A stretch of 63,470 nucleotides of DNA from Candidatus Geothermincola primus. Lineage in GTDB: Bacteria; Actinomycetota; Geothermincolia; Geothermincolales; Geothermincolaceae. The notes under the pieces are model-generated. The model made no database searches and was not told the origin of the DNA. It worked only from the letters and a program-made list of their open reading frames with translations. Below are positions 2,466 through 37,896 of the stretch, piece by piece. Position 1 is the first letter of the stretch, and the number at the start of each line of letters is the position of its first letter. A program made the translations under genes and the position numbers. The stretch spans positions 1 through 63,470 of the forward strand of contig JACVIX010000001.1 of the NCBI GenBank assembly GCA_015711725.1, in the 5' to 3' direction.

Positions 2466-4538
2466 ATGCTCCAAGTAAAAAATGGAAATTTTTTCAAATA
2501 TTCAATTGCGATAATAGCGTTGGTAGCGCTATCATTCTTTCTTTCTCCGCCTGTTGCCATCTTTCCGTCGCCAGCAAGTCCCACGGGCTCATTGGCTCCC
2601 GAAGGGCTGCAGACGATCAAGCGTCCTCAAGACGCCGGCAAGAGGATCGCTTTGACCTGGAAGGCGGATCCCCAGACCTTCGGATATCGGGTATATAGAT
2701 CTGAAAATGAGGAAGGACCCTATGAGGCTATTGGAGGTAAGGCTGGAAACTCCATGCAAGACCTGCCCATTTTTTTAGATGAGAACGTAGAGGGCGGGAA
2801 GACATATTATTATCGGGTAGCGGTGGTTGATGAGGAATGGAATGAAGGACCCTTATGCGATCCTATCTCCGCTGAGCTGGACACGTCGGTGGTGGTTGCG
2901 GCAGGACCGAAAAGCATGACCATCTCCCTGCCCGAGCAGCGCATATACTTCTACGAAGGGGGACAGCTGATAAATATTTTGCGCTGTTCCACCGGGCTCT
3001 ACAACGCCACTCCCACTGGCTATTTCCGCATCCTTAACCATCTGGGAACCCACGGAGGGGTGGGGGGAGCGGTATGCGATTATTGGATGAGTTTTACCCC
3101 GAAACATGGGATACATGCCTGGCCAAAGACTTCCAAAGGTTATGAGCAGGGGCTGGGGGCTCCCGCGTCTCATGGTTGTGTTCGTCTGCATCCTCTGGAG
3201 GCTTACTGGCCTTATTATTGGGCTCCCGATGGCACCCCTTTGACCATTATAGGATACCGGATTTCTAATTATGTGATCTCGGGATGTCACGATTCCATTG
3301 GTTCTTCGACGTTATCCCAGGACTGGTATTTCGCTGAGGGATTCACGGTGGGCGCTTTCGAGACCTATATTCTTATGAATAATCCCGGCGATTCAAGCGT
3401 TCATGCTGACGTCAATTTTTTCTTAGAAGGAGGCGGGATAGTAACTCAGGGAGTCTGGATAGGTCCCCATTCCCGTTACACCCTGACGGTTGATGCTATT
3501 CCTCAGTTGGCGTGGAACGCCTTCTCCACCCATATTCATGCAGACGCCCCCATAGTGGCGGAAAGAGCTATGTATTTCGTCTACGGCGATAAGTCGGATG
3601 GAAGCTCCACTATCGGCTCTCCTACTCTTTCTCAGGACTGGTTCTTCGCGGAGGGATACACAGGAGGGGAGTTCGATACCTTTCTCACCCTGGCTAATCC
3701 TGGGGATACCGGCACAGATGTAACGGTGACCTTCATGTTAGAAAGTGGCCAGATCGTAACTTACAATTGCTGGATCGCTCCTTTTTCCCGTTATACCATC
3801 GGAGTGGATGGCATACCCGGAATGGCAAACGCGGCGTTTGCCACCCAGTTGCATGCTGAGGACGCCCCCATCGTGGCGGAAAGATCTGTATATTTTCGCA
3901 AACTCTATATAAAAGGGGGGCATACTTCGTTAGGCTCAACCACGCTCTCCGACTGGTGGTTTTTCGCCGAAGGATGTACAAGGCCTTTCTTCCAGAGCTA
4001 CCTAGTTTTAGGCAATCCGGACAACAATTCGGCAGCCGTTGACGTGGTATTTTATCTGCAGGAAACGTGTTTGATGTACAGTTACACCATAAATCCTCAC
4101 TCCCGGCTTACCCTGGACGTTAACTGGTTGCCCTATCTTTATGGTAGGGATATAGCTTTCGCCATCCATGCCAACCGCCCTATCGTTGCCGAGCGTGCCG
4201 TCTATTATGACCTGGATAGTCATCGGGGCGGATCGGCATCCATCGGCTCGACTATCTCTTCAAATACCTGGTATTTCGCCGAAGGATACACGGGAGATGC
4301 TTTTGATGCCTATCTCTGCATCGCCAATACCGATGTGGTCGTTGCCAATGTCCAGGTGAGGTTTCAGAGAAGCGACGGCGCTGTTTTCGACTATTTTTAC
4401 CAGATCATTCCTCAAAGAAGATTCACCATAGGGATTGATGGCCTCCCAGGTTTGGGTTCCGCCAGCTTCTCCATGACAGTGATATCAGACGTGCCCATAG
4501 TGGCAGAAAGGGAGATGTATTTCGTGATGACTCGATGA
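2466..4538 (+). CDS. secreted L,D-transpeptidase (signal/TM + FN3-like + YkuD) followed by four ~105-aa 'WYFAEG...VAER' repeats
   Basis: YkuD catalytic motif 'HGIHAW...SHGCVRLHP'. Hydrophobic N-terminus 'FFKYSIAIIALVALSFFL'. I prefer the ATG at 2466, preceded by GGGAGGAAGG, over the track's GTG at 2382. Four tandem repeats run from about 3295 to the end. Confidence 0.85.
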   Translation: MLQVKNGNFFKYSIAIIALVALSFFLSPPVAIFPSPASPTGSLAPEGLQTIKRPQDAGKRIALTWKADPQTFGYRVYRSENEEGPYEAIGGKAGNSMQDLPIFLDENVEGGKTYYYRVAVVDEEWNEGPLCDPISAELDTSVVVAAGPKSMTISLPEQRIYFYEGGQLINILRCSTGLYNATPTGYFRILNHLGTHGGVGGAVCDYWMSFTPKHGIHAWPKTSKGYEQGLGAPASHGCVRLHPLEAYWPYYWAPDGTPLTIIGYRISNYVISGCHDSIGSSTLSQDWYFAEGFTVGAFETYILMNNPGDSSVHADVNFFLEGGGIVTQGVWIGPHSRYTLTVDAIPQLAWNAFSTHIHADAPIVAERAMYFVYGDKSDGSSTIGSPTLSQDWFFAEGYTGGEFDTFLTLANPGDTGTDVTVTFMLESGQIVTYNCWIAPFSRYTIGVDGIPGMANAAFATQLHAEDAPIVAERSVYFRKLYIKGGHTSLGSTTLSDWWFFAEGCTRPFFQSYLVLGNPDNNSAAVDVVFYLQETCLMYSYTINPHSRLTLDVNWLPYLYGRDIAFAIHANRPIVAERAVYYDLDSHRGGSASIGSTISSNTWYFAEGYTGDAFDAYLCIANTDVVVANVQVRFQRSDGAVFDYFYQIIPQRRFTIGIDGLPGLGSASFSMTVISDVPIVAEREMYFVMTR

Positions 4539-4557: not shown

Positions 4558-5625
4558 TCAGGTTCCACCAACCCTGGCCGAATTTTCCTTCACGTGATAT
4601 CGGTTCAAGGCTTCTTCGTACAACGCCAGATATTCCCGGGCCATCCTTTCAGGACTGAATCTCTCCAGGGCCACTCTCCTGCACACTTCCGGATCTATCT
4701 CGTCGATTCTCTCCAGATACTGGGGTATCTCTTCCAGGGTGTCCGCAAGAAAACCGGTTACGCCGTGCTCTATCACTTCCGGCGCCGCGCCGAAGCGTGT
4801 GGTTATCACCGGGGTTCCGCAAGCGAGAGATTCCGCCATCACTAGGCCGAAAGGCTCTTCCCACTGAATGGGGAAGAGGAACGCTCTGGCGCGGGAAAAA
4901 AGTTCCAGTTTCCTCTTTTGGCTTACCTCCCCCAGATACACGATGTCTTTGCCATCGAGATATGGTGTGAGCACTTCATGAAAGTATCGTTCGTCTCTTC
5001 CCGGGTCGATTTTTCCCGCGATTAATAATCGGTACCCCTTTTCTTTGGCGATACGAGCGGCGTGATGCGTCCCTTTGTCGGCGCATATCCGGCTGACGTA
5101 TACTAGGTAATCTTCCTTCTCATCGCTGGGTAGGTATTCCTGAATATCGATAGCATTGTGTACAACTCCCAGATAATTTAAATGGGGACAGCGGGTCATC
5201 TGATAATGGCTAATAGTAACGTAAAAGGCGTCTTGAGAGAATGCGTTGTAGAAAAGCTTTGCCTCGGGGGTGAGGGGGCCGTGAAGGGTGTGAACCAGTG
5301 GGATATCCAGGAGTGATGCGAAGGCGACTCCGATATATCCTGAATGGTCATGTACCAAGTCAAAATTGCCATCCTCCTTTATATAACGGAAGGATTTACC
5401 CACGTGGTACGCGTCATATAAAGTCTCACCTATCTTCTTTTCCGGTGCCTCCTGAAAAAAGATCACCTGTTCCGCTCGGGTGTTGGATGGTCCGCTAGCG
5501 AAGAGAGTTACCTGGTTTCCCAGGTTGACGAGCTCATCCACCAGGAGTTTGAGCATCCTTTCTATTCCACCATAACCCTGAGGAGGAACAGGTATCCACA
5601 CCGGTGCGATCATTGCTATTCTCAT
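4558..5625 (-). CDS. glycosyltransferase, GT4 (GT-B) family
   Basis: N-terminal 'MRIAMIAPVWIPVPPQGYGGIERM' and C-terminal 'EPFGLVMAESLACGTPVI' (E-x7-E) are typical of GT4 retaining glycosyltransferases. Confidence 0.85.
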   Translation of the reverse strand: MRIAMIAPVWIPVPPQGYGGIERMLKLLVDELVNLGNQVTLFASGPSNTRAEQVIFFQEAPEKKIGETLYDAYHVGKSFRYIKEDGNFDLVHDHSGYIGVAFASLLDIPLVHTLHGPLTPEAKLFYNAFSQDAFYVTISHYQMTRCPHLNYLGVVHNAIDIQEYLPSDEKEDYLVYVSRICADKGTHHAARIAKEKGYRLLIAGKIDPGRDERYFHEVLTPYLDGKDIVYLGEVSQKRKLELFSRARAFLFPIQWEEPFGLVMAESLACGTPVITTRFGAAPEVIEHGVTGFLADTLEEIPQYLERIDEIDPEVCRRVALERFSPERMAREYLALYEEALNRYHVKENSARVGGT

Positions 5626-6073
5626 CGTAAGCAGTCAACCTCCTCACATGAAAATATGGAAATGGTTATTTCTATCATCTAAACACCGAATGCAGAAAAT
5701 AGTTACATTTTGTAAATTGTATGAGTGAATTTTAATGTATATAGTTAATTACGTAATCTGGTGTTCCGGAGAAATTATTTAATAAGATTCAATAAACATT
5801 ATATATCTATAAGAGGTAGTGTTCAAATATTTTGTTCCATCGGAATCTTTAATCGTTTATCGAGGGCTTAAGTTAACTTTGAAAAACAAGAACAGGGATA
5901 TATCGTCTAAGCCTAGGGAAATTTACCATAAATTCGTGGGGAAATACGTCTTATCCTTGCCATGACATGTAGGTAGAATTGGAATAAAGACAAAAGGGTC
6001 TTAATCCGAGGATGTCTATACCGATGATTCATGAAGAAGTGAAAAAGTATGGCGTTTGAATGGAGTAAGCTAT

Positions 6074-9000
6074 ATGGGAAACTGTGTTGCTGATTTTCCC
6101 CTGATTAGAAGACATGCATACAAAGTAATAATATTTGATTGGGATGGGACCGCGGTGAAAGACAGGGCTTCTGACGCGTCAGAGATAATCTCCGTCCTAG
6201 AAGAGCTGCTTAAACTAGAGACTTACATCGTGGTTATAACTGGAACCAATCTAAATAACATTGACCGTCAGTTCTCCTCTAAGATCAACGGCCCCCATAA
6301 AAGGAACCTATTTATCTGTGCCAATAGGGGCTCGGAGGTCTTTGGCTTCGACCAGTATTCCAAGCCGGTGATCCATTTTAGAAGGGAAGCAGAAGAGGAA
6401 GAGAATGAGCTGTTGGACAAGGTGGCGGAGGCAGTGAAGAAGGATATCGAGGACAGGTCAAATGTCTCCATCGATATTGTCTACCAGCGCCTGAATCGCA
6501 GGAAGATCGACCTGATACCGGAATGGGAAGATCCCCCTAAATCAAGAATAGGCGAGCTGATTCAGGCTACGGAGGAGCGTTTGAAGCGAGGTGGACTGGA
6601 AGGGGGCATCAGGGAAGCATTTACGCTGGCAGAGCGTTACGCCAGGGAGTTTGGTTTGAAAGACGCGCGAATCACCAGCGATGTAAAACACGTGGAGGTG
6701 GGGCTTACTGATAAATCCGATTCCATGAGATGGATTTTGCATGAACTAGTCGCTAGATCCAACACGCCCTACTCCGATGTGCTGGTGATAGGCGACGAGT
6801 TTGGACCCGTGGCGGGGTTCGAAGGGAGCGATTTCCGCATGGTGGTTTCGGAGGCTCCCGGAATTACCTATCTTTCAGTGGGAAAAGAACCCAATGGGGT
6901 TCCCCCGCAGGTTCTCCATCTAGGAGGCGGTCCATCCTGCTTTATCCAGTTGATGAGGGAACAGGTGGCATTGCTGAGGAAAATGAATCCATCTGAGGAT
7001 GACACGCTCACCTTAGTAGAGGTGGGCTATAACCCAGTCCGTGAAAGAGAAATCGAATCCTATTTCACGGTGGGGAATGGTTATTTAGGAACCCGGGGCT
7101 CTTTACCGGAGCAGGAAAAAGCCTCTACACCGGCCACTTTGGTGGCGGGGGTTTACGATCGCGTAAGCCCCAATGCCATCGAGGAATTAGTTGTTTTCCC
7201 AGATTGGCTTTACACCCGTATTTATGTGGACGGCGAAATGTTGGAATTGAAACGGAGAAATATCGTGGAACATCGCAGGGTCCTGGACATGAGCAAGGGG
7301 GTAGTCTATCGTGAGTGGCTCCATGAGGATATAACCGACCGCTTAACTTTGGTGAAGTTTCAGCATTTTGCCTCTCTCGCCGACCAGCATGCCCTTGTTA
7401 TGAGAATAACGGTTGTGCCAAAGAATTACAAAGGAGAAATAAGGGTTGAAACCGGCTTAAAGATGGATCATGGGAAAAGCCCCAGCTTGCAAGGGGTTGA
7501 AATGATAGTGGACGAGGATGAAGGTTGGGTTATGATAAAAGGGAAGACTATATTCACAGGGTTCGAGGCGGCGCAAGCTCAAAAAAGCAAGGTAGCTGAA
7601 GGATATATAAAACCTGTTTACCAAGCCAGGAAAGGCGAGAACCTGGTTGAGGAAGAGTGGAGATGGATCGGCGGTATGGGGCAAGCGGTAACCATCGAGA
7701 AATACGTGAGCGTCTTCACCTCCAATGATGCCCAAGATGTAGAGAAGGAAGCATTAAAGAAGGTGAAAGAAATATCGCAGCTCGGTTACGAGGAGTTATT
7801 CCTTCGCCATATGGATGCTTGGGCGGAAAGATGGAGTAGATCATTCGTTCAAATAACAGGGGACAAGGACGCCCAGAAATGGATAAACTTCGCCATCTAT
7901 CACCTGATCAGCGCGGGCAATCCGCGGAACGAAAGGGTGTCAATAGGGGCAAGGGCGCTCACTGGAATGGTCTATAAGGGACATATCTTCTGGGATTCGG
8001 AGATTTACATTCTGCCCTTCTTCATCTACACACATCCCTCAACCGCCCATGATATGCTCATGTATCGTTATCATACTCTGCCCGCCGCCCGGCAGCGGGC
8101 CAAGGAGTATGGTTACCAGGGAGCACTTTACGCTTGGGAATCGGCTACCACGGGAGAGGATATGACGCCTCCGGCGGCACTAGCCCCCACCGGGGAGGTT
8201 ATCCCCATCAATTCCGGAAAACTTGAGCATCATATCAACGCTGCCATCGCTCATGGGGTTTGGTCCTACTGGAATTCCACTGGCGATACCGACTTTTTTA
8301 TTAAGGCGGCGGTGGAGATATTGGTGGAGACCGCACGTTTCTGGAAGAGCAGGGTGATCCGCGATGGGGAATTTTATCACATCTATGACGTGGAGGGCCC
8401 CGATGAGTTCCATGAAGGGGTAAACGATAACTTTTATACCAATGCGATGGCGGCATGGAATCTCCGCAAGGCCGTAGAGGCGGTGAACCGCCTGAAAGAA
8501 TATCACCCGCATGAGTTCCTCATGCTGGCGGATAAGATATCCTTGAATCTGGGCGAGCTCGAGGAATGGAAAGATGTAGCGGACCATATTTACCTGGACA
8601 TGAGTAGAGAAGACGGTATAATCGAGCAGTTCGCGGGATTCTTTGACCTGCAGGAGATAGACGTTAGCTGGTACGAACCACGCACTGCACCAGTGGACGT
8701 GATCCTGGGAAGGGAGAATGTTGCCCAAATTCAGTTGGTTAAGCAAGCGGATGTGGTCCTGGCCCTCTATTTACTTGAGGATTCGTTCTCCCGGGATGTC
8801 ATCGAAAAGAATTTCATATATTACGACATACGCACCAGCCACTCAAGCTCCCTCTCTCCCAGTATTTACGGATTGGTAGCCGCCCGTCTGGGTCTCATGA
8901 GCGCGGCTATGCGCTATTTCCGCCGGGCTGGGCAGATCGATTTAGCGGATAATATGGGCAATGCCGCCGGGGGAGTACATGCCGCAGCCCTGGGAGGTCT

Positions 9001-9292
9001 ATGGCAACAGATAGTCATGGGGTTCGCCGGTTTGAGAACGGACGATCAGGGTATATGGTTTTATCCTTGTCTTCCCTCGAAATGGAAAAGGCTCAGGTTT
9101 TTTCTCATGTGGAGGGGTTTAGTTTTGAAAGTAGATATTCAAAGGAGGAAGAAGATCCACCTTGATCTGGAAGGGAAGGGCTCGATAAACGCTGGAATTT
9201 TTGGCAAGCCGTCACAAGTGATGGAGGGGGGAAAGGTATATATTTCTACCTGGAAGGGTAACACATGGAATGAATTTACTGTCAGGGAGTGA
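6074..9292 (+). CDS. fusion protein: N-terminal HAD-type phosphatase domain + GH65 glycoside hydrolase/disaccharide phosphorylase
   Basis: HAD motifs 'FDWDGT', 'ITGT' and 'GDEFGP...GSD' lie in the first ~300 aa. The GH65 core includes 'GHIFWDSEIYILPFF', the catalytic-acid region. ATG at 6074 with an upstream GGAG is preferred over TTG at 6056. Confidence 0.85.
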   Translation: MGNCVADFPLIRRHAYKVIIFDWDGTAVKDRASDASEIISVLEELLKLETYIVVITGTNLNNIDRQFSSKINGPHKRNLFICANRGSEVFGFDQYSKPVIHFRREAEEEENELLDKVAEAVKKDIEDRSNVSIDIVYQRLNRRKIDLIPEWEDPPKSRIGELIQATEERLKRGGLEGGIREAFTLAERYAREFGLKDARITSDVKHVEVGLTDKSDSMRWILHELVARSNTPYSDVLVIGDEFGPVAGFEGSDFRMVVSEAPGITYLSVGKEPNGVPPQVLHLGGGPSCFIQLMREQVALLRKMNPSEDDTLTLVEVGYNPVREREIESYFTVGNGYLGTRGSLPEQEKASTPATLVAGVYDRVSPNAIEELVVFPDWLYTRIYVDGEMLELKRRNIVEHRRVLDMSKGVVYREWLHEDITDRLTLVKFQHFASLADQHALVMRITVVPKNYKGEIRVETGLKMDHGKSPSLQGVEMIVDEDEGWVMIKGKTIFTGFEAAQAQKSKVAEGYIKPVYQARKGENLVEEEWRWIGGMGQAVTIEKYVSVFTSNDAQDVEKEALKKVKEISQLGYEELFLRHMDAWAERWSRSFVQITGDKDAQKWINFAIYHLISAGNPRNERVSIGARALTGMVYKGHIFWDSEIYILPFFIYTHPSTAHDMLMYRYHTLPAARQRAKEYGYQGALYAWESATTGEDMTPPAALAPTGEVIPINSGKLEHHINAAIAHGVWSYWNSTGDTDFFIKAAVEILVETARFWKSRVIRDGEFYHIYDVEGPDEFHEGVNDNFYTNAMAAWNLRKAVEAVNRLKEYHPHEFLMLADKISLNLGELEEWKDVADHIYLDMSREDGIIEQFAGFFDLQEIDVSWYEPRTAPVDVILGRENVAQIQLVKQADVVLALYLLEDSFSRDVIEKNFIYYDIRTSHSSSLSPSIYGLVAARLGLMSAAMRYFRRAGQIDLADNMGNAAGGVHAAALGGLWQQIVMGFAGLRTDDQGIWFYPCLPSKWKRLRFFLMWRGLVLKVDIQRRKKIHLDLEGKGSINAGIFGKPSQVMEGGKVYISTWKGNTWNEFTVRE

Positions 9293-25689: not shown

Positions 25690-28071
25690 ATGAAGATACA
25701 CTTATGTAGGTCGATAGCTTTAATAATCTCGTCCCTCTTGCTAATGAGCCTTTTGATGGTTGATTCCTCACATGTCCAAGCTGCCTTTACGGACATTTAT
25801 ATAGAGCCAGCTGCTATACAGCAGGCTATAGAATACGCGTGTTCCCGCGGTTATTTGGAGGGGAATCCCGATGGGACGTTCAAGCCCAGAGAATGGATTT
25901 CTAGAATCGATGCGGCTCGAGCGTTGGTAATGGTTTTTGGCCACGGGCAGGAGCAACCGGACCCCAACATTCATTTTCCGGACCTGCCTGACGAAGATGC
26001 CAGATTCCGCTGGGCTAACTTGGCGGTCAAGCACGCTTTAATGGACAGGCTTCCGGATGGAAGGTTTCTTCCCGAAGTGACGATATCGCTGGAGAGGCTA
26101 GCTATAGGCATTACCCATGGTTTAGGGCTGGATAGCGTGGCCACCAATATCCAGCGCATTGTTCCTCAAGCTCCATATTATGGAGGTTTCATGGTAGTGT
26201 TCATGGGACTACGTTTGAAGTATTACGAAAGGAACTACGCTTTTTCGGTGAAAATCTGGCCAACCGGAGGTTACCCACGGGGCAACATGGCTTATACTCT
26301 ACAAAGGATCGATTACCTTGAATCGTGGCGGAGAAATTACCTAATCTCCACTTTCACAGAAGAGAGATGTCAACCGCCTCAAGCCAATGCTGGTCAACAG
26401 ACCGCGCTCAACTACGGATTTGAACGGTTGGGTTCCCCCTATTTGTATGGAGGAGAATCGGAGGCGGAAGGTGGTTTTGACTGCTCGGGTTTCGTCTACA
26501 ATACCTTGAGCATGCGCATGGGTTATCCCATGAAAAGGGTGGCGGATGACCAAGCCCGGGACGAAAATTATCTTTCTATCAACCGAGCTTACCTCAAACC
26601 AGGTGACGCTATTTTTTTCTATGATGAGGCGGGAGGAGGCTCCACGGGACATGTTGGCCATGCGGGTATGTATGTGGGTAACGGAATTTTCATCCATTCC
26701 GCGGGTTCCAATGGAGGCGTGAGCCTGGATTGCCTGGACACCTCCAGTTATTACAGCACTCATCTGGCTTGGGGAAGGAGGGTGGTTGGCGGTCCCTATC
26801 GCGATCGATTCGAGGAATATCTCCTTTTATTCAACCCGGATGCCTCGTCCGCCAGTGTGCAGGTCCAATATATAAGCAAAAAAGAACCCCCATTCACCAG
26901 GACTTACACCGTCGCTCCTCGCAGCAGGTATACAATACGCGTTGACGACCAGGTTGATTACGACGAAGTATCTCTTAAGGTTACCGCGGACCGGGACATA
27001 GTGGCGGAGCGCGCCATGTACTATAGTTATATGGGAAAGATGCCTGGAGGCGAAGCTTCGCCAGGGGTCTCCATTCCCAGCCTTTCCTGGTATTTCTCCG
27101 AGGGGTACACTGTAGGGAGCTTCGATACCTGGCTTTTACTCTTTAATCCCTCGGATTCCGCGGCCCAAGTAAGGTGCCGTTATCTTCTAGAATCAAGTAA
27201 GGTAATCGAGCAGAATTACATGGTGTCTCCTGGAAGTAGAACCACCATCTCAGTGGACGGAGTGCCGGGAATGGAGGGGACGGGCGTTGCATTGCAGGTC
27301 GAGTCCACCAACGGGGTGGGAATCGTTGCCGAGCGAGTGATGTACTTCGACTATATGGGAAATAAAGGGGGTAGCGGAGGGATAGGGGTGAATGCACCGG
27401 CGGGGAAATGGTATCTGGCTGAGGGCTATACCGGCAGTGGGTTCGACACCTATCTCACATTGGCCAATCCATCTGAGGATCTCGCCAGAGTGCAGGCGGA
27501 TTTCCTGTTGGAAGGCCGCGATAGGGTCACCGAATATTTTGATGTCGCGCCCCATTCCAGGTTGACCGTGAAGGTAAATGAGATAGTGCCAAAAGCAAAT
27601 GTGGCTGTGGAAGTGGGGTCGCTCAATGGGGTAGGAATTGTGGCGGAGAGGGTCATGTACTTCAACTATGGCGGAAAGAGAGGGGGCCATGCCAGTGCCG
27701 GCGCCTCCACGCTATCCAGTGACTGGTTTTTCGCAGAGGGATACACCGGGGGCAGTTTCGATAATTATTTGGTTCTAGCCAATCCTTGGGAGGAACAGAC
27801 CGGGGTGGTCTGCAGGTTTTTCCGGGATGATGGGGTAATGGTGGAAAGAAATTATAGGGTGGCGCCGCAAAGTCGCTTCACCATAAAAGTGGATGACATC
27901 GGCGGCTTGGAGTCCGCCGCCTACGCTATCCGTGTGTCTTCCGACCGGCCGGTTATAGCGGAACGCGCCTCCTATTTCTCTTATCGAGGATGGGATGGGG
28001 GAAGCGATGCTAAGGGCGTGGCCGCTCCTCGACGAGAATGGTATTTCGCGGAGGGATACACAGGGGGCTAG
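25690..28071 (+). CDS. SLH-anchored NlpC/P60 cell-wall hydrolase followed by 'WYFAEG...VAER' repeats
   Basis: Signal peptide, then two SLH-like segments ('GYLEGNPDGTFKP', 'LPDGRFLP'). NlpC/P60 motifs are 'GGFDCSGFVYN' and 'GHAGMYVGNGIFIHS'. Four repeat copies start at about 26787. Confidence 0.85.
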   Translation: MKIHLCRSIALIISSLLLMSLLMVDSSHVQAAFTDIYIEPAAIQQAIEYACSRGYLEGNPDGTFKPREWISRIDAARALVMVFGHGQEQPDPNIHFPDLPDEDARFRWANLAVKHALMDRLPDGRFLPEVTISLERLAIGITHGLGLDSVATNIQRIVPQAPYYGGFMVVFMGLRLKYYERNYAFSVKIWPTGGYPRGNMAYTLQRIDYLESWRRNYLISTFTEERCQPPQANAGQQTALNYGFERLGSPYLYGGESEAEGGFDCSGFVYNTLSMRMGYPMKRVADDQARDENYLSINRAYLKPGDAIFFYDEAGGGSTGHVGHAGMYVGNGIFIHSAGSNGGVSLDCLDTSSYYSTHLAWGRRVVGGPYRDRFEEYLLLFNPDASSASVQVQYISKKEPPFTRTYTVAPRSRYTIRVDDQVDYDEVSLKVTADRDIVAERAMYYSYMGKMPGGEASPGVSIPSLSWYFSEGYTVGSFDTWLLLFNPSDSAAQVRCRYLLESSKVIEQNYMVSPGSRTTISVDGVPGMEGTGVALQVESTNGVGIVAERVMYFDYMGNKGGSGGIGVNAPAGKWYLAEGYTGSGFDTYLTLANPSEDLARVQADFLLEGRDRVTEYFDVAPHSRLTVKVNEIVPKANVAVEVGSLNGVGIVAERVMYFNYGGKRGGHASAGASTLSSDWFFAEGYTGGSFDNYLVLANPWEEQTGVVCRFFRDDGVMVERNYRVAPQSRFTIKVDDIGGLESAAYAIRVSSDRPVIAERASYFSYRGWDGGSDAKGVAAPRREWYFAEGYTGG

Positions 28072-32398: not shown

Positions 32399-35300
32399 TC
32401 AAGCCCTCATCAGCTCTCCCATCATAGGCCCCAGCAGAGGGGGCATGACTCTCTCCATCACCCCGGGCAGCATGCGGGGCATCAGTTCGCGCATAGATGG
32501 GGACATCTCTGGCATCTTCTGTTCTAGGATGGGAAGCATGCGGGGTAGCATCAGTTTGAGCATGAGAGGCAACAGGCGCGAAGCCATAGAGGGTCCCACT
32601 TTGGTCATCGCCCAAACGATAGTCCTCTTGACGGGCGAAGGTAGAGCGCGCATTCCTTTTATGATGGCTGAGCTGGGCCCAGGAAGAGATAGCAGGAACT
32701 CTTCCATGAAGTCTGCCATACCCTGAGGAGTCATTAGTCTAATCATCTTGTCGAAAACGGCCCAGTTCCTGGCCACCTCGGCAGTGGGGTCCCCTAAAGG
32801 ATAACCCAAAGCCTCTGAAACCACGGAGGCAAAATCGCGAACTGGCATTTCGCTTCCTGCGGCTTGGCTCCATACTCTCAATTGAAATTCGCAGCAAGGG
32901 CAGGTTGTGACTATGGCTTGAGCTTCGGTCTGTCGAGCTTCCTCAAGCCTTTTGGAGGCGATAGCCTCAGAAGTGGGCTTGGTTTCGCCGATAAGTGTGA
33001 GAACGCTACCACAACAGAGGGCGTCTTCACGGTTATGTTCCATCTCCACTAACGTGATCCCCGGAATGGCTTTCAGCACTTCCCTGGGCGCTTCGTAGAT
33101 ACCTCCGTGGCGTCCAATGTGGCAAGGATCGTGCCATGTGATCTTCATGGGAATATTATTTACAAATTGTAATTTATTTTCCGCAAGAAGTTCTGCGGCA
33201 ACCTCCGAAATATGTTTTACCTCCACCTCCCATTCGATTCCAAGCTTCTCGGCCCATTGTTTATAGTGGTGGGATAAAGTGACCCAGCAACCCGGGCATG
33301 AGGCTATCAAAGTCTTGATCCCCCTGCCCTTTATTTCCTCTATATTCTTGCGCACAGCTTTTTCGAACAGGTCCCATTTTCCGCTCATAAGAAAAGGAAT
33401 GCCGCAACAAGTCTCCTTCTCCCCTAGATAAACGAATTCCAAACCTCCCTCCTTAAGTATGCGTACAGAGCCTTGGGCGATATCCTTCTCCACATAGGAA
33501 GCAGTGCAACCTGCCCAGTAACCCAAAGATCCTTCCTTGAGAACATCTATATCCTCGGGGAGCCAGGAGTCTCGATTCTCGGAAAAACTTGCCCAGATGT
33601 TGCTCTCCATATCGTAGGAAGCGCCCATCATCTCGAAAGGAGGAAATGTCTTAAATCTGCCGGAAGCGATTAGTTCGCCCCGCATGGATTCCCATAGGGA
33701 TTCAATGGGCAAATCGGTCTGACATACGTTGTCACATTTTTTACACGTTGTACATAAAAGAAAGGTTCTTGCCATCTTTTCGTTTAAGGGAAGCCTGCCC
33801 TGGCTATATCTCTTGAGGTAATACCATTTGCCGCGAGGGGAAGCGCTTTCCCAACCCCTGCCAGAGTAGAGAGTACATTCTTGGACGCAGTATCCACATT
33901 GAGCGCAGGTGTAAGCGGCGGTTTCCAACTCTTGAGGCAATTTTTTCCTCAAAGAGGGGATATTCTTGGGAAGAAGCCAGCCCATTCTCCAACCTAGCGG
34001 GGCCAGAGGTGTCGCAAAGGACAGGAAATAGTCTAAAAGGCGGACCTTAGCCGGTCTGTGCTCGTCAACTAGTAATTTGCCTGGATTCATAATTCCCGAA
34101 GGATCATGGTCTATTCGATAGCGGCGCAGAAATTCGCTTTTTGTTTTGCCCCACCGTTCCTCAAAGCTAGGCGCAAAGTAAAGACCGATCCCGTAAGGCT
34201 TTCCCCCTCGCTTTCGCACCAGGCTTAGAAAATGCAAGGATTTGGCGAATTCAAGGGTGAACGCAGGAGACCTGGTGTCCGAAGGGATAAAACCTAGAAG
34301 AATCGCCCATCCGTCGGAGGTAAGCGTAGCCTCGATGCTCATATCGGGAATGGACTTCTCCGTGGCGGCGAAAACGGTTGAAAGATACTCCCAAGGTATC
34401 ATGGCTTCGGCGGGGATAAGGGAGGGGCCCAGCTTGCGAAGGCGCATGGGATTAAACCTCTCTTCCCATTCGTGGAGAGCCTGTTTCTGAGGAAGTTGTT
34501 TCCCCCCATGGCGTGAAGCGATTCTTACGAGATGCCTCTCCGTCTCTGGTGAGGGATTTTCCAACACCACAAGTGCTAAATAGGTAACGGGAAGGGGGTC
34601 TTCGGCATCAAGCTGGTTTTTAATTTTAGCTAATTGGGGGTTGAGAATTTGTAGGTGGTAGATGTCAAGGTCAGTGCCCAGTTCTCGCATAAAGGACTGG
34701 ATTCCCAGATAGCCCTTGAATGAGAAGAGTAAGGGGATCTCCTCGCCCGCTTTACGAACCTTAAGCCTTACTGCGGTGATGATCCCGGTGATGCCCTCCG
34801 CACCGTAGTATTTCCAAAGGTCACTCCCTCCAATTTCTTGTAGATTTCCCTCGGGAGAAACTACTTCCAGGCTTTCCAGGTTGCTTTCCAGGGAACCGTA
34901 ACTATAACTCCCAATGCCATAGCCACCCTCAGCCACCCAGCCCCCCACTGTTGAGGAAGGAGCACTGGAGGGGTAGACGCGCAGGGCAAAGCCCTCTTTT
35001 CCAAGGGCTGTTTCTAGATGCTTCCAGATTACCCCTGCATCCACCAGTGCGGTTTCACTTTGGGGATCGATTTCCCTAATTGTGTTCAGCGAGGTGAGGT
35101 CGATTACCATGCCCCCGCTGGAGGGCAACGCTCCACCATAGCCGCTGGTAGCGGAGCCTCTAGGAACAATAGGAATTCCTCGGCTGCGAGCTAGCTTTAC
35201 CAGGTGAATTATTTCTTGGACGCCCCTGACCTTTACCACCACTTCCGCCTGGGGTCGTAACAGTTTTTCTATGATGCTTGGAAATTCCCCCATATCATGG

Positions 35301-35446
35301 GAATAAAGGTCCAGCTCAATATCATCCCAGGTCACTCGGTCGCCAAGATCTTGTTTGAGAGATACCTTGAATTGTTTGGTAACTTTTCCAGCCAATATCT
35401 CCACCTCCAAAAACTTCGCGCTAGCGAGCCTTCGCCTTTCCATCAT
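32399..35446 (-). CDS. fused FAD-linked oxidase (GlcD-like) + 2x[4Fe-4S] + 2xCCG (GlcF/HdrD-like) oxidoreductase with a Met-rich C-terminal extension
   Basis: 'PRGSATSGYGGALP' marks the FAD_binding_4 domain. 'CAQCGYCVQEC' and 'CTTCKKCDNVC' are the cluster motifs. 'CCGIPF' and 'CCGSVL' are the CCG motifs. An alternative TTG start at 35395 follows GGAGGTG. Confidence 0.85.
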   Translation of the reverse strand: MMERRRLASAKFLEVEILAGKVTKQFKVSLKQDLGDRVTWDDIELDLYSHDMGEFPSIIEKLLRPQAEVVVKVRGVQEIIHLVKLARSRGIPIVPRGSATSGYGGALPSSGGMVIDLTSLNTIREIDPQSETALVDAGVIWKHLETALGKEGFALRVYPSSAPSSTVGGWVAEGGYGIGSYSYGSLESNLESLEVVSPEGNLQEIGGSDLWKYYGAEGITGIITAVRLKVRKAGEEIPLLFSFKGYLGIQSFMRELGTDLDIYHLQILNPQLAKIKNQLDAEDPLPVTYLALVVLENPSPETERHLVRIASRHGGKQLPQKQALHEWEERFNPMRLRKLGPSLIPAEAMIPWEYLSTVFAATEKSIPDMSIEATLTSDGWAILLGFIPSDTRSPAFTLEFAKSLHFLSLVRKRGGKPYGIGLYFAPSFEERWGKTKSEFLRRYRIDHDPSGIMNPGKLLVDEHRPAKVRLLDYFLSFATPLAPLGWRMGWLLPKNIPSLRKKLPQELETAAYTCAQCGYCVQECTLYSGRGWESASPRGKWYYLKRYSQGRLPLNEKMARTFLLCTTCKKCDNVCQTDLPIESLWESMRGELIASGRFKTFPPFEMMGASYDMESNIWASFSENRDSWLPEDIDVLKEGSLGYWAGCTASYVEKDIAQGSVRILKEGGLEFVYLGEKETCCGIPFLMSGKWDLFEKAVRKNIEEIKGRGIKTLIASCPGCWVTLSHHYKQWAEKLGIEWEVEVKHISEVAAELLAENKLQFVNNIPMKITWHDPCHIGRHGGIYEAPREVLKAIPGITLVEMEHNREDALCCGSVLTLIGETKPTSEAIASKRLEEARQTEAQAIVTTCPCCEFQLRVWSQAAGSEMPVRDFASVVSEALGYPLGDPTAEVARNWAVFDKMIRLMTPQGMADFMEEFLLSLPGPSSAIIKGMRALPSPVKRTIVWAMTKVGPSMASRLLPLMLKLMLPRMLPILEQKMPEMSPSMRELMPRMLPGVMERVMPPLLGPMMGELMRA

Positions 35447-36117: not shown

Positions 36118-37896
36118 ATGCGGCTGGAAGTGGTCTTGATGAGAAAGATTTTGTATTTATGGATGATAAGTTTGGCATTCCTTCTTGTTTTCTCTCTCGC
36201 CCCGTATGGTTTGGCGGACGCTTATGAAAAACCGCAGATTGACATTATAGAGCCGGCGAGGGCGCCAATAGGAAGCGAGATCACTATCAATGGCGCCCAC
36301 TTTGGCGATATGCGAGAGGGATCTCGCGTAGTGTTTGGCTCTGTAGAAGCTACACAGTATATCCGCTGGTCGGATTCTCAAATAAAAGTGATTGTGCCTT
36401 ATGGGTCATATCCGGATAGCCAGTTGCAAGTTAAGGTCATAACCCCTGGGGGAAGTTCTTATGGGGCCAGATTCGAGCTGGAGCCCCGCGCTATGGTCCT
36501 GGCCGAAGGTTTCACAGGTAAAGGTTTCCAAGAATATATAATACTGGGCAATCCTCAAGCTTTCGAGGTTAAGGTTAAATTACTATATATCTTCGCGGAC
36601 GGCACGTATATGGAAAGGGGCATGATAGTTCCCCCCCAATCCAGGGTAACCGTCGACGTGAACAGGGATGTGGGCGAGGAAGAGGAAGTATCTGCATTGA
36701 TTTTCTCAGATATCTATATTGTGGTGGAACGGCCTATCTACTTCGATTACCGGGGATGGACAGGAGGACACAATATTGTAGCAGGACGCAAAGCCAGCAA
36801 AACTTGGTATTTCGCGGAGGGATCTACTGAGCCAGGATTCGATGAATACTTGGCGGTTCTCAACCCCACGGAGAAAGAGGCCAATTTGGTCTTCCGTTTT
36901 CAGATAGAGGACGCGGGAGAAATTTTCCGTTACGGGAGCGTGCCCGCCTATTCACGGAAGACATTCAAATTAAACGATCTGCTGGGTTCGGGATGCCGAG
37001 CTTCATTGGCCTTAAAATCGGACCAATTCGTTGTGGCAGAGAGAAGCATGTACTTCGGCCACGAAGACAGTCGGAGCGGTGGCCATTGCGAAATGGGTTT
37101 ACCGGGATTTCCCAGTTCAGGACCTTTTTCCTACTACTTCGCTGAGGGCAGCACTTTCGGCGGCTTCGATGAATATCTGATATTACAAAACCCCGATTCA
37201 GCTATTCCAGTGGTGGTGGATGTGACCTATAGGTTCCGGGCGGGCCAGGGGGACCCAATTCGTAAGCAGTATCGGTTGGAGCCAGGGCAGAGACGCACTA
37301 TCTTCTTGCCCGATGATGTGGGGAGAGGCAAGGATGTCTCTGTTGCGCTGCAATCGGATTCACCATTCGTCGCGGAACGCTCTATCTTCTATCGATATGA
37401 TTTTTCCGATATTAGTGTATATGGTGGAGATTGCATCGTCGGTGCCCGGAAAACTTCCCTCCAATGGTACTTCTCCGAGGGTTTTACCGGGCCGGATTTC
37501 CACGAATGGCTGTCACTTTTCAATCCCGGAGAAGAGGATTCCCTAGTGGAAGTCACCTATTTCACTCCATCGGGAGTTTTACATCCCGCGAGAATCACTG
37601 TTCCCGCAGGAAGTAGGGAGACTTTTATGGTGAATGACCATGCGGGCAGAAACATCTTGCTCTCCTGCCAGATTAGAGTCATTTCTGGGCCGGGTATCGT
37701 GGCGGAAAGACCCATGTATTTCCGATTATCCCAAACTGAGGATGGAGATACGGCGGTTGAAGGGGGACATACTTCGCTGGGCGATGTCCCCTATGCCGGC
37801 GATGCCCTTGAAGATTACACTTCCAACTGTTGCAGTAATCTAATGGAAGCCCTAAGTCCCTTCTTTCAGGAAAAGGCTCGGAGGTTATGGAAGTAA
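36118..37896 (+). CDS. secreted IPT/TIG-domain protein followed by four 'YFAEG...VAER' repeats
   Basis: Signal peptide 'ILYLWMISLAFLLVFSLAP'. The IPT/TIG-like segment is 'PQIDIIEPARAPIGSEITINGAHFG...VKVITPGG'. Repeats span about 36481-37770. An alternative start is at 36139. Confidence 0.8.
   Translation: MRLEVVLMRKILYLWMISLAFLLVFSLAPYGLADAYEKPQIDIIEPARAPIGSEITINGAHFGDMREGSRVVFGSVEATQYIRWSDSQIKVIVPYGSYPDSQLQVKVITPGGSSYGARFELEPRAMVLAEGFTGKGFQEYIILGNPQAFEVKVKLLYIFADGTYMERGMIVPPQSRVTVDVNRDVGEEEEVSALIFSDIYIVVERPIYFDYRGWTGGHNIVAGRKASKTWYFAEGSTEPGFDEYLAVLNPTEKEANLVFRFQIEDAGEIFRYGSVPAYSRKTFKLNDLLGSGCRASLALKSDQFVVAERSMYFGHEDSRSGGHCEMGLPGFPSSGPFSYYFAEGSTFGGFDEYLILQNPDSAIPVVVDVTYRFRAGQGDPIRKQYRLEPGQRRTIFLPDDVGRGKDVSVALQSDSPFVAERSIFYRYDFSDISVYGGDCIVGARKTSLQWYFSEGFTGPDFHEWLSLFNPGEEDSLVEVTYFTPSGVLHPARITVPAGSRETFMVNDHAGRNILLSCQIRVISGPGIVAERPMYFRLSQTEDGDTAVEGGHTSLGDVPYAGDALEDYTSNCCSNLMEALSPFFQEKARRLWK

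Follow-up and report, generated by a model that had tools for sequence, protein, structure and literature searches.

ASRAH is a superfamily of small-molecule-binding domains defined by De Souza, Iyer and Aravind (Biol Direct 2009, 4:25; PMC2739507), and its members are the closest described relatives of three secreted proteins, A, B and C, that are encoded in a 63,470-nucleotide stretch of Candidatus Geothermincola primus (contig JACVIX010000001.1, positions 1 to 63,470; the whole stretch is called the window below). Family 1 of the superfamily consists of stand-alone cytoplasmic ASRT-like proteins that form tetramers, family 2 of secreted Chloroflexi proteins in which four repeats are fused to an N-acetylmuramoyl-L-alanine amidase, and family 3 of actinobacterial cell-surface lipoproteins with two repeats (PMC2739507). 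This third family apparently corresponds to Pfam DUF5719. A tryptophan at the start of strand 1 and a near-invariant asparagine that ends strand 2 are conserved in the domain (PMC2739507). The stand-alone ASRT-type proteins were proposed to be small-molecule sensors, and homologs bind small ligands in a cleft; De Souza et al. predicted that the domain binds sugar or peptidoglycan, and they proposed that the tetramer is imitated by dyads and tetrads (PMC2739507). Nothing was found for DUF5719 in the full-text literature, and for ASRAH only De Souza et al. (2009) was relevant, with no later experimental work.

Each of the three window proteins carries four tandem modules of ~105 residues, which amounts to 12 copies in the window. 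The modules share a series of ordered motifs: W-x-FAEG-x-T, F(D/E)xYLxLxNP, a V.V.F strand, SRxT..VD, and P(I/V)VAERxMYF...GG. These arrays are probably best explained as closed-ring bodies of four ASRAH domains that bind wall glycan on behalf of the attached enzyme. The features are listed below, with strands numbered S1 to S8 within a module and with the independent E-value (i-E) of each module against a hidden Markov model (HMM) of the 12 copies.

2466..4538 (plus strand): protein A, 690 amino acids (aa) from the ATG at 2466; a longer open reading frame (ORF) of 718 aa starts from the GTG at 2382
2916..3248 (plus strand): YkuD catalytic domain of A, Pfam PF03734, E 1.2e-15, residues 179-289 of the 718-aa ORF, active-site motif 'SHGCVRL'
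3273..3305 (plus strand): displaced, S8-like strand S8' of A (YVISGCHDSIGS), which precedes A1; a beta-strand predicted with confidence, its DSSP pattern matching that of internal S8 strands
3306..3620 (plus strand): module A1, i-E 4.5e-40
3621..3938 (plus strand): module A2, i-E 6.4e-40
3939..4250 (plus strand): module A3, i-E 9.1e-38
4251..4535 (plus strand): module A4, i-E 6.1e-35, HMM positions 2-94; stops after strand S7, without S8 (DSSP)
25690..28071 (plus strand): protein B, 793 aa, with signal peptide, SLH, NlpC/P60 endopeptidase, ASRAH tetrad and orphan strand
26431..26757 (plus strand): NlpC/P60 domain of B, Pfam PF00877, E 1.7e-17, residues 248-356
26794..27069 (plus strand): module B1, strands S2-S8 only, without the W-x-FAEG strand
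27070..27390 (plus strand): module B2, i-E 3.3e-39
27391..27705 (plus strand): module B3, i-E 1.8e-37
27706..28020 (plus strand): module B4, i-E 3.3e-41
28021..28068 (plus strand): orphan C-terminal strand S1 of B (AAPRREWYFAEGYTGG), a predicted strand with block-mean predicted local distance difference test (pLDDT) values of 97 and 82
36118..37896 (plus strand): protein C, 592 aa, with signal peptide, IPT/TIG, canonical-phase ASRAH tetrad and a 32-aa tail
36475..36786 (plus strand): module C1, i-E 1.9e-36
36787..37113 (plus strand): module C2, i-E 1.4e-35
37114..37446 (plus strand): module C3, i-E 3.5e-32
37447..37797 (plus strand): module C4, i-E 8.2e-33, which keeps its own S8 ('GGHTSLGD')

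The repeat is real and far beyond chance. Module borders were set by anchoring on the W-x-FAEG and (I/V)VAER motifs, and the 12 modules share 26-53% pairwise identity, with per-copy i-E values from 1e-32 to 1e-41. When the six-frame translation of the whole window was scanned with the 12-copy HMM, no 13th copy was detected and the sole extra match covered 13 residues at the C-terminal end of protein B, an orphan first strand. Four charged residues (E11, R57, E86 and R87) are invariant in all 12 modules, as is Asn26, which ends strand 2 before a tight turn. The strand-1 tryptophan is present in 10 of the 12, with Met in C1 and Tyr in C3, and B1 is devoid of strand 1. A first-pass annotation of this DNA had described four tandem copies of ~105 aa with these ordered motifs in protein A, and the same module four times each at 25690-28071 and 36118-37896, for a total of about 12. 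Motif anchoring and the HMM scan bear out both descriptions, and the similarity among the three loci survives alignment.

The heads that precede the tetrads differ, as had been proposed: Pfam identifies YkuD in A, SLH (E 7e-7) and NlpC/P60 in B, and IPT/TIG (E 8e-11) in C. The secreted context and the link to peptidoglycan-remodelling heads were confirmed as well. Protein A, whose NCBI product is also 690 aa long, consists of an N-terminal hydrophobic segment, an Fn3-like domain, the YkuD L,D-transpeptidase domain and the ASRAH tetrad, an architecture shared by more than 80 orthologs. Protein C is identical to one of our representative relatives (P0172). The NCBI version of protein B (P0143) is 713 aa long and begins with 'MVFGHGQEQ'; it is devoid of the signal peptide and SLH domain, which are part of the longer ORF that begins with the ATG at 25690 (window 25690-25929). 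The annotated NCBI start of B is probably too far downstream. Weak PLipase_C_C matches in protein B (377-434) probably reflect generic beta-sandwich similarity.

The first-pass annotation could not assign the module to any characterised domain, and this is refuted by several lines of evidence in addition to the 2009 description of ASRAH. Proteins A, B and C exceed the gathering cut-off of Pfam PF18986 (DUF5719; 26.2 bits) with scores of 31.9, 51.5 and 46.5 bits, respectively, and the 319-position model is matched only in its central part (positions 63-201, 43-240 and 54-212). Protein C also matches PF07100 (ASRT), weakly. Among solved structures, the 12-module profile retrieved Thermotoga TM1070 (1nc7) with an E-value of 6.5e-7 and Anabaena ASRT (2ii7) with an E-value of 0.059 (hmmsearch), and a profile of 915 modules from relatives aligned to the same two proteins with hhalign probabilities of 98.1% and 96.1%. 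Moreover, 28 of the 64 representative relatives match Pfam ASRT directly, with a best E-value of 1e-20. No NCBIfam model was found for the tetrad.

Structure prediction is consistent with the profile comparisons. The AlphaFold model of the B tetrad, computed from 33 sequences, has a pLDDT of 91.7 and a predicted template modelling score (pTM) of 0.89, and it presents eight strands per module in one compact four-domain body; the stretch ahead of B1 is disordered in the model. A Foldseek search of this model against the Protein Data Bank matched 1nc7 with probability 1.0, a template modelling (TM) score of 0.82 and a root-mean-square deviation (rmsd) of 1.8-2.9 A, and ASRT with TM scores of 0.65-0.80. 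All other matches in that search had an rmsd of 20-40 A and no solved chain resembled the whole tetrad. On these sequence profiles and predicted structures, the module is an ASRT/TM1070-like (ASRAH) eight-stranded beta-sandwich of Pfam DUF5719/ASRT. The module thus maps to a known domain family by Pfam, hhalign and Foldseek, but it matched no domain of experimentally known function.

Searching with the tetrad of A retrieved 1,317 proteins at E<=1e-5, and the module profile retrieved 7,995 representative clusters (50% identity), 3,546 of them at E<=1e-30. Named relatives include metagenome-assembled genomes (MAGs) of Actinomycetota (Geothermincolia, Solincola, Anoxymicrobiaceae and Acidimicrobiales) and, beyond that phylum, Chloroflexota (Herpetosiphon and Ktedonobacterales), Acidobacteriota and Sumerlaeota. 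We also observed a full tetrad with 30% identity to that of A on contig JAUSDC010000131.1 of a Candidatus Methanoperedens MAG (locus L037, 3001-4305), which is binned as archaeal; either the gene was acquired horizontally or the contig was binned wrongly. The family is multi-copy: three of its genes lie within the 63 kb of the window and single MAGs contain several loci. Relatives reach ~2900 aa. In close relatives the heads are mostly wall enzymes, namely YkuD (dominant, in the orthologs of A), SpoIID, Amidase_3 and NlpC/P60, and CAP heads occur as well. The wider family, represented by the 64 relatives, adds TIG, subtilases, FG-GAP and other beta-propellers, purple acid phosphatase, esterase and M28 peptidase. 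An N-terminal hydrophobic segment is present in 110 of the 130 representatives with a complete start. The module had been described as always C-terminal, which holds within the window but not across the family: the tetrad is C-terminal in 117 of 148 representatives and is N-terminal, internal or nearly the whole protein in the others.

The number of modules is almost constant. Four modules were found in 148 of 156 arrays and eight in 4 of 156, in lists that were ranked by score, such that common arrays of 5-7 modules would have surfaced while arrays of 1-3 modules could escape. Every complete protein among the top 120 matches carries four, and the eight-module proteins consist of two distinct tetrads.

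The tetrads differ in the point at which their 32 strands are cut. We sorted 265 tetrads by phase and found 124 canonical, 59 S8-first and 41 plus 2 S1-last arrays. In the canonical phase, which includes protein C, the order S1..S8 is repeated four times and the cut lies between S8 and S1. In the S8-first phase (the YkuD type, including protein A), an S8-like strand stands ahead of module 1 and module 4 stops after S7, which places the cut between S7 and S8. In the S1-last phase, module 1 begins at S2 and an orphan 'WYFAEG...' strand stands at the end (a cut between S1 and S2); these tetrads follow CAP, amidase, SpoIID or NlpC/P60 heads and include protein B, which terminates in an extra 'WYFAEGYTGG'. 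All 41 tetrads for which the HMM called no S1 in module 1 carry the extra terminal strand. In two more tetrads that end in this strand (B and P0151) the HMM did call S1 in module 1, seemingly by over-extension, since in B the FAEG motif is missing there. An orphan C-terminal S1 never co-occurs with a genuine S1 in module 1.

Both displaced strands, S8' of A and the orphan S1 of B, are confident beta-strands in the AlphaFold models, with the same DSSP pattern as at internal junctions. We propose that S8' completes module A4, which has no S8 of its own, and that the orphan S1 of B occupies the vacant S1 slot of B1 and closes the ring. The tetrad is most likely a closed ring, as its 32 strands can be cut at three points with the displaced strand reappearing at the other end of the array. 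Velcro closure by a displaced strand is known from beta-propellers. CAP- and amidase-headed relatives (P0094, P0116 and others) end in an orphan strand with the sequence 'WYFAEGC(V/T)(K/R)', with Cys in 23 of 33 cases, at a position where internal S1 strands have Tyr. This Cys could form a disulfide or a family-specific contact.

These observations suggest a model in which the four ASRAH sandwiches would pack together as a single compact unit of ~45 kDa that reproduces the TM1070/ASRT homotetramer within one chain, with the displaced strand completing the incomplete module at the opposite end of the array. The tetrad would then be a non-catalytic extracytoplasmic binding module, probably tetravalent, in which up to four clefts may provide avidity. 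It would hold or target the attached enzyme on a cell-wall glycan, either peptidoglycan or a wall-associated polysaccharide. We favor a wall glycan because the tetrad adjoins peptidoglycan enzymes, a paralog with PG_binding_4 exists and the superfamily possesses a ligand cleft. Of the roles proposed in the first-pass annotation, wall binding is the best supported, but the wall ligand itself is our inference.

The paralog is found next to the orthologs of A, which adjoin a second YkuD gene bearing PG_binding_4 in place of the tetrad. A 350-aa PG_binding_4 + YkuD gene lies directly upstream of the YkuD-tetrad gene at 3650-4702 in L073 and L074, at 3601-4653 in L075 and at 919-1971 in L076. Two L,D-transpeptidase genes that differ in their accessory domain thus stand in tandem at these orthologous loci, an arrangement that is absent from the window.

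Several observations weigh against a glycan-binding ring. The residues that contact the ligand in TM1070 are replaced in the window modules, the His by D/E/Q of the 'F-D' motif and the Cys by a hydrophobic residue, and therefore the ligand of TM1070 cannot be carried over to them. Many heads of wider relatives are unrelated to the wall (subtilases, phosphatases, esterase, beta-propellers and TIG), which is more in line with general anchoring than with the targeting of substrates. With SLH present in protein B, a further anchor would seem superfluous. The proposed closure of the ring by complementing strands is deduced from strand order. When the modules of the S8-first and S1-last phases were compared by positional orthology, identities were flat (0.34-0.42), with no positional pattern that would map the permutation. 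The fixed number of modules has a candidate exception in P0170 (701 aa, truncated at both ends), which presents at least six evenly spaced modules with a 110-aa period and near-equal scores; it may be part of an eight-module array.

The alternative that survives best, which we nonetheless consider unlikely, is that the tetrad is a ligand-sensing regulator that binds a soluble metabolite or wall fragment and switches the attached enzyme on or off, with no anchoring involved. The superfamily is defined by small-molecule binding, protein B is already anchored by SLH, and the invariance of the charged E11, R57, E86 and R87 in every window module would suit such a sensor. However, the same tetrad occurs on very different catalytic and non-catalytic heads, including the TIG-only protein C, and it can also be N-terminal or constitute almost the whole protein. 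Both observations are hard to square with specific allosteric coupling.

It is also very unlikely that tetrads are building blocks of a surface layer or sheath, self-associating into a lattice that the heads decorate. The first-pass annotation had suggested a sheath-forming or S-layer-like array, an idea that receives no support from the compact body predicted with a pTM of 0.89, from a copy number fixed at four or eight, or from the many unrelated secreted heads. The multi-copy nature of the family, the lack of an enzyme head in protein C and the length of some relatives would fit a structural role, but the modeled tetrad is globular rather than extended, the carriers are mostly ordinary secreted enzymes, and there is no conserved operon, the neighbours being unrelated housekeeping genes. 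Two of the 64 relatives (P0163 at 379-438 and one other) match Slr4, an S-layer protein of marine Gammaproteobacteria. We rejected this similarity, which scores 22.6 bits against a Pfam cut-off of 25 and is probably generic to beta-sandwiches. Finally, a docking or sorting module to which a partner surface protein or the machinery of secretion, sorting or attachment would bind, like C-terminal sorting domains, would explain the mostly C-terminal position on diverse secreted cargo but is quite improbable given that ~420 aa far exceeds known sorting tags, that the tetrad is also N-terminal, internal or duplicated, that no conserved partner gene lies nearby and that small ligands are bound in a cleft by homologs.

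The neighbours of the three window genes include a family 4 glycosyltransferase (GT4; convergent and beside A only), a family 65 glycoside hydrolase (GH65), TetR, amine oxidase, rubrerythrin and thiolase. The GT4 gene is convergent to that of protein A, 20 bp downstream of it, and is followed by a 1078-aa fusion of a HAD-like domain and a GH65 phosphorylase (window 4558-9292). We considered GT4 as a conserved partner, which would recall the glycosyltransferase linkage of ASRAH family 3, and rejected it because the A/GT4/GH65-fusion gene order is kept in a relative with 84% identity (L072) but not in orthologs with 51-53% identity. Elsewhere in the window, a 354-aa ORF on the minus strand (944-2008) contains two CxxC-type pairs ('CSKCGMPT' and 'CGECGAP') and has no Pfam match at E<=1e-3. 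A 1015-aa fusion on the minus strand (32399-35446) combines FAD_binding_4/FAD-oxidase_C, a 4Fe-4S dicluster and two CCG domains, and looks like a GlcD-GlcF-like oxidoreductase in one polypeptide. No tRNA and no Rfam matches were found in the window.

Carriers of the module span Actinomycetota, Chloroflexota, Acidobacteriota and other phyla, yet no extracellular member has been characterised experimentally and no solved structure of a tetrad is available. A wall-glycan-binding ring, if that is what the tetrad is, would account for the positioning of peptidoglycan enzymes throughout an uncultured actinobacterial class, and it would provide a compact scaffold for tetravalent binding. The three circular phases would then show, in a clean natural case, how a multi-domain ring can be permuted.

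Of the described systems, ASRAH family 2 of Chloroflexi is the most similar to the window proteins: both are secreted, contain four domains with an eight-stranded sandwich, a strand-1 Trp and an Asn-Pro turn after S2, and are fused to peptidoglycan enzymes. Alignments of the A tetrad with Herpetosiphon proteins of family 2 extend through all four modules at 27-28% identity (e.g., a 745-aa protein of H. aurantiacus), and most modules of the Herpetosiphon protein also contain the AEG, SR/R and AER motifs. However, family 2 is always fused to an amidase and is found in Chloroflexi, whereas the window heads are YkuD, SLH with NlpC/P60, and TIG, in a host lineage of Actinomycetota; Amidase_3-headed tetrads do exist among the relatives of the window proteins. 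The window modules are also far better conserved than those of Chloroflexi, and the three circular phases seen here were not described by De Souza et al. (2009). The additions beyond 2009 are the occurrence of arrays almost exclusively in fours and eights, the range of heads and the three phases, a modestly novel structural twist. They do not overturn the current understanding, as that study had already made the basic assignment and predicted the role.

Some relatives are already named 'DUF5719 family protein' by NCBI. Nevertheless, DUF5719/ASRAH family 3 is a dyad flanked by family-specific N- and C-terminal extensions, in contrast to the tetrads of the window proteins, which match the model partially. 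Family 3 proteins present a lipobox Cys after the signal peptide; in A, B and C the signal segment is not followed by a Cys. Their neighbourhood of WhiB, glycosyltransferase and inactive zincin was not found beside the window genes, with the exception of the convergent GT4 next to A.

TM1070 (1nc7) and ASRT (2ii7; PF07100) share the fold of the window modules as well as significant profile similarity, but they are cytoplasmic, single-domain, stand-alone proteins with the ligand signature SHEshChhN. In contrast, the window modules are extracytoplasmic and covalently linked in fours, and they present a signature of their own (AEG, F-D, SRxT and VAER) in place of SHEshChhN. The TM1070/ASRT homotetramer probably provided the template for the intramolecular tetrad.

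The resemblance to LysM, SH3b, PG_binding_1/4, SPOR and SLH is one of functional analogy only. Like the tetrad, these domains occupy the slot beside YkuD, NlpC/P60, Amidase_3 and SpoIID domains. The fold of the tetrad is unrelated to theirs, its unit is an obligate four-domain body and its wall ligand is putative. We tentatively suggest, at somewhat less than even confidence, that a closed pseudo-fourfold velcro ring of 32 strands that can be cut at three points at least might be the main cell-wall-targeting device of deep-branching Actinomycetota (Geothermincolia/Solincola), in the role that LysM, SH3b or PG_binding domains play elsewhere.

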